Origin: Escherichia coli
Lineage (GTDB): Bacteria > Pseudomonadota > Gammaproteobacteria > Enterobacterales > Enterobacteriaceae
Strand: one strand, 5' to 3'
NCBI RefSeq assembly: GCF_002854065.1
Contig: NZ_CP024147.1
Length of the DNA: 64,000 nt
This document shows positions 24,904-26,525 of the stretch, one piece after another. The position numbers and the translations under genes were made by a program. A model generated the notes under the pieces. It made no database searches, was not told where the DNA came from, and saw nothing but the letters and a program-made list of their open reading frames with translations. Every line of letters starts with the position of its first letter. The stretch's first letter is position 1.

Positions 24904-25608
24904 ATGGACAGATTCCCACGTTCTGATTCAATTGTACAACCCCGGGCTGGCTTGCAAACTTATATGGCGCAAGTCTATGGCTGTATGACTGTTGGCTTGT
25001 TGCTGACCGCATTTGTTGCCTGGTATGCGGCTAATTCTGCGGCAGTGACGGAGCTGTTATTCACTAACCGTGTCTTTTTAATCGGTCTGATCATCGCGCA
25101 ATTAGCATTGGTTATTGTGTTATCAGCGATGATTCAAAAGCTGAGCGCAGGTGTAACGACGATGCTCTTTATGCTTTATTCGGCGCTGACGGGTCTTACG
25201 CTTTCCAGTATTTTCATTGTTTATACCGCTGCTTCTATCGCCAGTACTTTCGTCGTTACTGCTGGGATGTTCGGCGCAATGAGCCTGTATGGTTACACCA
25301 CGAAGCGCGATCTAAGCGGCTTTGGCAATATGCTGTTTATGGCGTTAATCGGCATTGTGCTGGCATCGCTGGTCAACTTCTGGCTGAAAAGCGAAGCGTT
25401 GATGTGGGCGGTTACCTACATCGGCGTGATTGTCTTTGTCGGATTGACGGCGTATGACACGCAGAAACTGAAAAATATGGGTGAGCAGATTGATACCCGC
25501 GACACGTCGAACCTGCGCAAATATTCCATTCTTGGCGCGCTAACCTTGTATCTGGACTTCATCAACCTGTTCCTGATGTTGTTGCGGATCTTCGGCAACC
25601 GCCGTTAA
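24904..25608 (+). CDS. ybhL: Bax-inhibitor-1 family inner membrane protein
   Basis: Start at MDRFPRSD (234 aa); seven hydrophobic segments. Confidence 0.9.
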   Translation: MDRFPRSDSIVQPRAGLQTYMAQVYGCMTVGLLLTAFVAWYAANSAAVTELLFTNRVFLIGLIIAQLALVIVLSAMIQKLSAGVTTMLFMLYSALTGLTLSSIFIVYTAASIASTFVVTAGMFGAMSLYGYTTKRDLSGFGNMLFMALIGIVLASLVNFWLKSEALMWAVTYIGVIVFVGLTAYDTQKLKNMGEQIDTRDTSNLRKYSILGALTLYLDFINLFLMLLRIFGNRR

Positions 25609-25811
25609 TTCTTTTTCACCATCAATATCCCGGCCATGTGTCGGGATTTTTTCTTACTAAAAACGACACTTAACAAGTACCAGGTATAAAATATGCCTTA
25701 TGAGCGAGCGGAATCGTTTTCCGTATCCATAAATACAAAAGTATTTTGTATGCGTGGTTTTAAATTTATTGATGGTGAATATTAATATTTTCTCTAAGGA
25801 CAACTAAAAGA

Positions 25812-26525
25812 ATGGAATCATACTCACAAAACAGCAATAAATTAGATTTTCAGCACGAGGCCAGGATATTAAATGGTATATGGCTCATTACCGCTTTAGG
25901 TTTGGTGGCAACCGCAGGACTGGCTTGGGGAGCTAAGTATCTCGAAATTACGGCAACCAAATATGATTCACCAACAATGTATGTCGCTATAGGGTTATTA
26001 TTACTTTGTATGTATAGCTTAAGTAAGGATATCAACAAGATAAATGCCGCCATCGCAGGCGTAATATATCTGTTTTTACTCTCTTTGGTGGCGATTGTCG
26101 TTGCTAGTTTAGCTCCTGTACCTGCCATTATCGTCGTGTTCAGCACTGCGGGCGCGATGTTTTTAATCAGTATGCTGGCCGGTTTATTATTTAATATTGA
26201 TTCTGGTTCTCACCGTTTTATGATTATGATGACGTTGACAGGGTTGGCCCTGGTGATCATCGTGAATGCCGCATTAATGAGTGAACGGCCCATTTGGGTA
26301 ATAAGTTGCTTAATGATTGTGTTATGGTCAGGCATTATCTCGCATGGACGAAATAAGCTCCTTGAATTGGCGGGGAAATGCCATAGTGAAGAGTTGTGGA
26401 GTCCGGTTCGTTGCGCTGTTACAGGTGCATTAACACTCTATTACTATTTTATCGGCTTCTTTGGGATTTTTGCAGCAATAGCGATAACGCTTGTCTGGCA
26501 AAGGCATACGCGTTTTTTTCATTAG
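25812..26525 (+). CDS. ybhM: Inner membrane protein, BI-1-like paralog of YbhL
   Basis: 237 aa; shares C-terminal GALTLY..F motif with YbhL. Confidence 0.88.
   Translation: MESYSQNSNKLDFQHEARILNGIWLITALGLVATAGLAWGAKYLEITATKYDSPTMYVAIGLLLLCMYSLSKDINKINAAIAGVIYLFLLSLVAIVVASLAPVPAIIVVFSTAGAMFLISMLAGLLFNIDSGSHRFMIMMTLTGLALVIIVNAALMSERPIWVISCLMIVLWSGIISHGRNKLLELAGKCHSEELWSPVRCAVTGALTLYYYFIGFFGIFAAIAITLVWQRHTRFFH

Follow-up and report, generated by a model that had tools for sequence, protein, structure and literature searches.

The 64,000-nucleotide stretch of Escherichia coli DNA analysed here (contig NZ_CP024147.1; the window) carries two neighbouring genes, ybhL and ybhM, whose products both belong to the Bax inhibitor-1 (BI-1), or TMBIM, family. 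Judged from their sequences, the two proteins are paralogs, homologous over their whole seven-helix length. ybhL is under strong purifying selection, whereas ybhM appears to be under only some and encodes a protein without the pH-sensing residues of its canonical relatives. The best explanation as a whole, to which we assign a probability of roughly 0.62, is that the two genes are separately transcribed paralogs, a conserved ybhL and a sensor-less satellite ybhM that arose from duplication. ybhM would then be this strain's surviving member of a fast-evolving, AT-rich, BI-1-derived satellite array at the junction of ybhL and ybhN.

The pair is known and already annotated in E. coli. The window is a piece of the chromosome with the gene order moaABCDE-ybhL-ybhM on the plus strand, followed by ybhN-clsB-ybhP on the opposite strand (RefSeq annotation of the strain CUWW06 record, a 99.9% match). 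Most E. coli genomes are 95–97% identical to the window along this stretch. RefSeq labels both ybhL and ybhM "Bax inhibitor-1/YccA family protein", and their pairing is therefore an ordinary finding. An earlier note on this DNA, made from the letters alone, had proposed two neighbouring BI-1-like genes here, and both lie exactly where it placed them. The features of the locus are as follows.

24843–24871, plus strand: sigma-70 promoter of ybhL, TGCACA-17-TATCCT; exact match to the constitutive promoter listed as moaE>ybhL (PMC3946193)
24904–25608, plus strand: ybhL, 234 amino acids; canonical BI-1/TMBIM-type seven-helix inner-membrane protein; sensor aspartates D185 and D218 kept
25609–25811, no strand: spacer between ybhL and ybhM, 203 base pairs (bp), 33% GC; flagged as an H-NS site in K-12 (PMC3946193)
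25627–25653, plus strand: intrinsic terminator of ybhL, 8-bp stem, 5-nucleotide loop and T run (hairpin at 25627–25647, then TTTTT; terminator scan)
25663–25690, plus strand: sigma-70 promoter of ybhM, ACGACA-16-TATAAA; exact match to the promoter listed as ybhL>ybhM (PMC3946193)
25795–25800, plus strand: Shine-Dalgarno sequence TAAGGA, 5′ of the ybhM start
25812–26525, plus strand: ybhM, 237 amino acids; divergent BI-1-family paralog with G179 and Y212 at the sensor positions (open reading frame and annotation)
26561–27517, minus strand: ybhN, convergent; fixed right-hand border of the variable interval (open reading frame and annotation)

Homology, constraint and transcription of the pair

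The earlier note derived common ancestry from a shared C-terminal motif. Both motif sequences are present (ILGALTLYLDFINLF from YbhL residue 209 and VTGALTLYYYFIGFF from YbhM residue 203), and pairwise alignment finds significant similarity well outside this short motif. BLASTP aligns 151 amino acids at 25% identity (E=2e-12). The Smith–Waterman score is 165, compared with 44.9±7.9 in 1000 shuffles (z=15). In block shuffles, which preserve local hydrophobicity, z is 12, and no shuffle of either kind reaches 165. Both proteins match the Pfam family PF01027 (Bax1-I) above its cut-off of 34.1 bits: YbhL with 211.5 bits over model positions 1–207, YbhM with 71.0 bits over positions 3–202. A profile-profile comparison of the YbhM-like clade (see below) with YbhL-like and canonical sequences aligns 217 columns end to end, with a probability of 99.8% (E=8.6e-29).

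The predicted structures agree with seven-transmembrane proteins of about 235 amino acids, as the pair had been described. For YbhM, AlphaFold2 predicts seven long helices (residues 7–43, 54–76, 79–100, 103–127, 134–154, 159–192 and 198–235) with a predicted local distance difference test (pLDDT) of 92.5. The YbhL model has seven long helices in an equivalent layout and an additional short helix at 46–54 (pLDDT 89.2). The hydropathy of both proteins agrees with this layout. Foldseek finds no match for the YbhM model in the PDB at E≤0.001; the model is confident and matches the YetJ fold weakly.

In the fold of Bacillus subtilis YetJ (BsYetJ), a central seventh transmembrane helix (TM7) is wrapped by two three-helix units. 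BsYetJ is the bacterial TMBIM/BI-1 protein of solved structure (PDB 4PGR and related entries). Its di-aspartyl pH sensor consists of Asp171 in TM6 and Asp195 in TM7, and TMBIM conductance depends on the sensor residues (PMC8589314). The two aspartates align with D185 and D218 of YbhL, and their columns hold aspartate in 39 of 43 and 38 of 43 canonical sequences. YbhL thus keeps the sensor and YbhM does not: in YbhM the two columns are G179 and Y212, both aspartates are replaced, and the di-aspartyl feature is absent. No member of the YbhM-like clade retains both. Since Pfam membership does not require the di-aspartyl sensor, YbhM remains a member of PF01027, as an atypical sensor-less variant. 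YbhL has all the sequence and structural hallmarks of a canonical bacterial TMBIM protein, with a predicted BsYetJ-like fold and an intact sensor.

Eukaryotic TMBIM proteins (BI-1/TMBIM6, GAAP/TMBIM4, TMBIM5) share with the pair the Bax1-I domain and the C-terminal GAL.LYLDF.N.F motif, the one that the earlier note had picked out. They differ in being proteins of organelles that take part in cell death and Ca2+ handling, and the conserved aspartates behind those functions are lost in YbhM.

Substitution rates come from comparing the window with E. albertii, with Salmonella and with two further loci of the E. coli type. For ybhL the ratio of nonsynonymous to synonymous substitution rates (dN/dS) is 0.01–0.04, and the protein is 99% identical within E. 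coli and 86% identical to Salmonella. For ybhM dN/dS is 0.20–0.48 (0.20–0.29 against E. albertii, up to 0.48 within E. coli); the protein is 92% identical between two E. coli alleles and 84% identical to E. albertii. By this measure ybhM evolves about ten times faster than ybhL. Among 15 Escherichia alleles, ybhM is variable at 106 of 237 sites. Together with the full-length homology, these rates bear out the description of ybhM as a diverged paralog.

Copies of ybhL at least 99% identical to that of the window occur in only 2 of 5,426 E. coli genomes. Compared with the allele of E. coli E69 (L050) the window's YbhL shows W27C and M49T, and position 27 is the majority-conserved tryptophan of the family's N-terminal VY.WM motif.

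Composition also separates the two genes. ybhM has a GC content of 0.420 and a GC content at third codon positions (GC3) of 0.437; the values for ybhL are 0.485 and 0.596. The earlier note was thus right to call ybhM the AT-richer gene. Its GC3 is the third lowest among the 45 open reading frames of at least 200 amino acids in the window (mean 0.575, standard deviation 0.076). The spacer between the genes, which had been put at about 200 bp and AT-rich, measures 203 bp with a GC content of 0.33.

ybhL and ybhM appear to be separate transcription units because a terminator follows ybhL and each gene has its own published promoter. The terminator hairpin lies 19 nucleotides past the ybhL stop codon (−11.6 kcal/mol, z=−2.1). 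The earlier note had given the spacer a terminator; the hairpin and the T run are there, and they belong to ybhL rather than ybhM. In multi-gene haplotypes (L008, L009 and L013) the first 44 nucleotides past the ybhL stop codon are 100% identical. In the three-gene haplotype of strain Ec387 the hairpin is 85% identical, with a stem G-U to G-C change. Genomic SELEX (systematic evolution of ligands by exponential enrichment) in K-12 lists constitutive sigma-70 promoters for moaE>ybhL and for ybhL>ybhM, the latter row with an H-NS flag (PMC3946193). Our consensus scan placed the ybhM promoter in a register two bases off the published one.

Upstream, between moaE and ybhL, lies a palindromic element (GCCGGATAAGGCACCGCTGCATCCGGC, window 24778–24804) that resembles repetitive extragenic palindromic (REP) sequences. 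An Rfam match to naRNA4 at 24777–24817 is sub-threshold (23.1 bits against a gathering score of 59.5). It is the sole match in a scan of 24700–26700, which finds no RNA family in the spacer.

The variable interval between ybhL and ybhN

To count as near-full-length in the 5,426 complete E. coli genomes, a gene had to reach a coverage of at least 80%. ybhL does so in 5,424 genomes. ybhM is matched in 5,399, but reaches this coverage in only 4,787. Near-full-length ybhM is thus missing from about 12% of the genomes: ybhL is core and ybhM is dispensable. The genes that follow ybhL vary as listed here.

Window and K-12 type: ybhM only
750 of 5,426 complete E. coli genomes (14%): a third paralog between ybhL and ybhM
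E. albertii, cryptic-clade and rare E. coli: middle paralog, ybhM, fourth paralog, DUF3969 gene, 73-amino-acid open reading frame
Strain E400634 (one strain): the long array without the fourth paralog
Strain GF4-3 (one strain): the long array without the 73-amino-acid open reading frame, plus a 152-amino-acid and a 186-amino-acid SUKH-4-like open reading frame
E. coli SCPM-O-B-8794 (L018): ybhM wholly absent
E. coli E69 (L050, CP089930.1), 5997–7673: a 558-amino-acid gene replaces ybhM; multi-pass membrane protein, Pfam Sulfatase, 118 bits

The window therefore carries the short two-gene haplotype, without the middle and fourth paralogs, the DUF3969 gene and the 73-amino-acid gene. This two-gene state was presumably derived by deletion, because the longer array is found in the outgroup E. 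albertii and in deep lineages of Escherichia, where its divergence is proportional to that of the flanks. The middle paralog has a synonymous divergence (dS) of 0.27 between E. coli and E. albertii, which is comparable to the flanking genes. dN/dS is 0.39–0.46 for the middle paralog and 0.22 for the fourth.

The third paralog of E. coli Ec387 (L002, 2954–3658; WP_001299026.1) has 234 amino acids and a TTG start, and 730 of the 750 genomes that carry the gene have a copy at least 99% identical to it. It is nearer to YbhM (28% identity, E=5e-19) than to YbhL (25%, E=3e-12). Between this three-gene haplotype and the window, the 5′ end of ybhM (about the first 12 codons) and the spacer upstream of it are sharply different, and the spacer core (about 25655–25790) finds no significant match in the three-gene haplotype. 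We also considered the spacer as a remnant of a deleted middle paralog. This could not be demonstrated: blastn matches are limited to the terminator (85%), the 5′ end of ybhM (74%) and one 17-mer (E=0.036), and blastx of the spacer against the paralogs gives E≥1 only.

Loss of ybhM takes several forms. A recurrent allele of 390 nucleotides carries an in-frame internal deletion of 324 bp (E. coli MLI106K3, L003, 4014–4403; window 25812–26525). It keeps about residues 1–36 and 145–237, and its protein cluster (P0069, 129 amino acids) has 452 members. Many of the 12% of genomes that lack a near-full-length copy probably carry this allele. Insertions of the insertion sequences (IS) IS5 and IS1 in ybhM are also recorded.

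GC3 is low throughout the array interval, at 0.42–0.45 for ybhM and 0.22–0.43 for every other gene. The SUKH-4-like open reading frame of GF4-3 scores 24.7 bits, below the cut-off of 25.5. By its architecture, and on general knowledge only, we take the sulfatase-domain protein of E69 to look like a phosphoethanolamine transferase of the EptA/MCR type. No paper in the library searched mentions DUF3969.

Origin of ybhM

An exhaustive HMMER search with YbhM through 1.84 billion representative proteins gives 92 hits at E≤0.001. Beyond the YbhM orthologs of Escherichia and Shigella, the nearest full-length relatives are 24–35% identical, and all of those with a named source come from Enterobacteriaceae. 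The sources are E. coli and cryptic Escherichia (two further paralog types), Salmonella enterica (two types), Kluyvera georgiana, Superficieibacter electus, Pseudocitrobacter and Kosakonia sp. BK9b. Canonical BI-1 proteins rank after this YbhM-like clade, with E of about 1e-9 or worse. Word-indexed homolog searches gave mainly Escherichia orthologs; the distant clade is seen only by the exhaustive scan. Eleven residues are invariant across the clade, including W39, G114, M116, F117, G144, N152, W162, S165 and G205.

YbhM-like genes lie directly downstream of ybhL in Escherichia, Salmonella, Kluyvera georgiana, Pseudocitrobacter, Kosakonia sp. BK9b, Phytobacter and one further contig. Every ybhL-adjacent YbhM-like gene that we found (seven genera) sits immediately 3′ of ybhL. 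YbhM is thus a member of a small divergent clade that is confined to a few Enterobacteriaceae genera and found almost always right after ybhL. The sole exception among the retrieved contexts is a second Salmonella cassette.

A YbhL scan of species-representative genomes returned 80 loci across Enterobacterales, where the order moaE-ybhL followed by ybhN-clsB ... ybhQ is widespread. In most genera ybhN comes directly after ybhL, with no second BI-1 gene. Among the 80 loci a YbhM-like open reading frame occurs only in E. albertii, a Pseudocitrobacter metagenome-assembled genome (MAG) and Phytobacter massiliensis, whose copy is the most canonical-looking (164 bits with the clade model, 84 with the canonical model). 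The right-hand flank varies too. In E. albertii (L010/L011, 6471–6881) ybhQ follows directly after the BI-1 array and ybhN-clsB-ybhP is missing from this position. The same ybhQ arrangement is found in Kluyvera (L014, L022), a Pluralibacter MAG (L035) and some Cedecea and Enterobacter loci (L041, L045).

The second Salmonella enterica cassette lies near guaBA (L006/L007, 3536–5900). It consists of a 133-amino-acid open reading frame, a YbhM-like gene (238 amino acids) and two membrane-protein genes (203 and 184 amino acids), which are 37–39% identical to the two genes after the ybhL-adjacent Salmonella copy. The surrounding island holds an IS, a TsiV immunity gene of the type VI secretion system (T6SS), a Sel1-repeat gene, DUF1266 and a DnaJ-domain gene. 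As a conserved partner of YbhM the Salmonella pair (202 and 186 amino acids) was rejected: it is kept only between the two Salmonella cassettes and is unrelated to the E. coli and Pseudocitrobacter neighbours. The small Pseudocitrobacter open reading frames near the YbhM-like gene match no Pfam family.

We consider it rather likely that the clade originated by an old tandem duplication of ybhL, after which divergence would have accelerated while copies were gained and lost. Duplication is favoured because of the adjacency to ybhL in seven genera, the restriction of the clade to Enterobacteriaceae and the lack of an outside donor lineage. The earlier note had offered separate acquisition as another possibility. 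For Escherichia this is not supported. ybhM is also present at the same site in E. albertii and cryptic Escherichia, the ybhL-adjacent YbhM-like genes of all seven genera lie directly downstream of ybhL, and its dS to E. albertii (0.31–0.32) is like that of the flanking core genes (moaE 0.24–0.31, moaC 0.36–0.57).

Several observations weigh against our explanation. A phylogeny of BI-1 homologs, which the earlier note had proposed as a check, was computed as a neighbor-joining distance tree. It does not make the YbhM-like clade a sister of enterobacterial YbhL; the distances to all canonical sequences are saturated, at about 2.3–2.5, and the tree is uninformative about the clade's deep origin. 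With YbhM as the query, the unrelated canonical BI-1 proteins P0098 (3e-9) and P0100 (8e-9) outscore the E. coli YbhL representative P0117 (6e-5). The patchy distribution among genera would need many independent losses under vertical descent. The whole variable interval is AT-rich and hosts unrelated genes (DUF3969, the SUKH-4-like open reading frame, the sulfatase-domain gene), and a paralogous Salmonella cassette sits elsewhere, beside an IS and a T6SS immunity gene. Furthermore, no experimental or functional study of YbhM was found in the literature searched.

Alternatively, a foreign BI-1 homolog on an AT-rich accessory segment may have integrated between ybhL and ybhN and later been exchanged among related genera. 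Such a capture would fit the low GC3 of ybhM and of the rest of the interval, the H-NS flag on the spacer, the presence/absence differences within genera and the unrelated cargo that the interval accepts. It would also fit the canonical matches that outscore the adjacent YbhL and the Salmonella cassette with its IS and TsiV neighbours. The patchy distribution, however, does not by itself require transfer, because frequent loss is directly seen within E. coli. Low GC3 in ybhM is not proof of a foreign origin: under the AT-biased mutation pressure known in bacteria, a poorly expressed gene with weak constraint and an H-NS association would be expected to show it too.

We judge capture unlikely. 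No donor lineage appears among the 1.84 billion representatives, in which the named clade sources are all Enterobacteriaceae. The position is the same in all seven genera, and a chance landing beside the resident BI-1 gene would be improbable with about 3 family members per about 4,300 genes. We take the BI-1-family proteins of E. coli K-12 to be YbhM, YccA and YbhL. Finally, the E. coli and E. albertii copies have diverged to a degree that agrees with vertical inheritance from the ancestor of the two species.

Possible functions of YbhL and YbhM

By analogy with BsYetJ, YbhL would act as a pH-sensitive cation (Ca2+/H+) leak or as a membrane-homeostasis protein, like other bacterial TMBIM proteins. 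YbhM is presumably not a pH-gated Ca2+ leak, because both sensor aspartates are replaced. Its scaffold has probably been retained for membrane protein-protein interactions. YbhM may act through such contacts, either by a YccA-like modulation of FtsH-type quality control or in an accessory, conflict-related role.

E. coli YccA, another member of the BI-1 family, is a substrate of the FtsH/HflKC protease and also inhibits it (PMC9379554). Like YbhL and YbhM it is a seven-helix inner-membrane protein of this family, and it offers a channel-independent function that could apply to a sensor-less paralog. Neither protein, however, is a YccA ortholog: the NCBIfam YccA equivalog model NF007765, whose cut-off is 353 bits, gives YbhL 27.2 bits and does not match YbhM.

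In E. coli O157 Sakai on lettuce, ybhM mRNA goes up 4.6–5.1-fold late in survival, and the survival table with ybhM also includes espX, espY3, pchD, grvA and csgD. Because its own promoter sits in the H-NS-flagged spacer, ybhM may be mostly silent under laboratory conditions and switched on by stress. The company that ybhM keeps on lettuce presumably fits H-NS-type control, as far as general knowledge goes.

Could ybhM be a decaying reading frame without remaining function, drifting to a pseudogene after duplication? Its dN/dS within E. coli, the loss of both aspartates and the many variable sites point this way, as do the IS insertions, the deletion allele, the absence and the replacement in the genomes that lack a near-full-length copy. 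Yet the full-length reading frame persists in about 88% of the 5,426 genomes and in E. albertii, despite a dS of about 0.3, and dN/dS against E. albertii is clearly below 1. The clade-invariant residues hold across genera at 25–35% identity, the AlphaFold2 model is confident, and the gene has its own promoter and a transcript that is induced on lettuce. Hence we regard a relic as improbable; dN/dS below 1, the 11 invariant residues and the rise of the transcript all argue that ybhM is still a gene.

The conflict-related role can be taken further. YbhM and its relatives may form an Enterobacteriaceae-specific, BI-1-derived family that gave up the sensor and channel chemistry and was recruited to conflict between bacteria or with phages, as membrane immunity proteins or decoys (for example, against membrane-targeting toxins). 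In that case the junction of ybhL and ybhN would amount to a small island of orphan immunity genes. Such a recruitment would explain the variable tandem arrays, the fast evolution, the association with H-NS, the immunity-type neighbours and the frequent loss. The orphan-immunity arrays of polymorphic toxin systems indeed resemble the YbhM-like array in variable copy number, rapid divergence, AT-richness, presence/absence polymorphism and immunity-type neighbours. Among these neighbours are the DUF3969 and SUKH-4-like open reading frames and, at the second Salmonella cassette, TsiV ("Type VI immunity for VRR-NUC"), the Sel1-repeat gene and DUF1266.

The YbhM-like array differs from orphan-immunity arrays in having neither a linked toxin nor a recognised BI-1-fold immunity family, and the likeness is one of resemblance only. 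No toxin domain lies beside the YbhM-like genes in loci L002–L017, with L018–L097 searched only for homologs of BI-1, YbhN, ClsB, MoaE and YbhQ. YbhM, its paralogs and its neighbours have no PADLOC matches. No partner gene is conserved across genera, the small Pseudocitrobacter reading frames have no family match, and the SUKH-4 score is under its threshold. We know of no BI-1-fold immunity protein that has been described. On balance, recruitment of the YbhM-like family to conflict is very doubtful. If it were true, the family would add a new fold to the bacterial immunity-type proteins, and the weak match between YbhM and the YetJ fold could reflect real structural remodelling.

The gene pair itself is of little consequence, and what our analysis adds is modest and evolutionary: setting the core ybhL against a sensor-less, often-lost ybhM is a minor addition. 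Even so, the pair forms a natural contrast between a core copy with the family's catalytic-type residues and a satellite copy without them. The satellite evolves about ten times faster and belongs to an AT-rich array of variable content, and about one genome in eight has lost it or carries it truncated. ybhM is thus a convenient test case for a TMBIM scaffold that lacks the di-aspartyl sensor, and it shows the persistence of H-NS-associated duplicates.

Elsewhere in the window, the most AT-rich open reading frames are two adjacent ones on the plus strand at 37863–39875 (GC 0.34 and 0.38, GC3 0.32 and 0.35). The first (398 amino acids) has no Pfam match. The second (250 amino acids) matches Pfam SopA_C with 57.5 bits, and this SopA-like catalytic domain suggests that an effector-like gene, or a fragment of one, was acquired horizontally.

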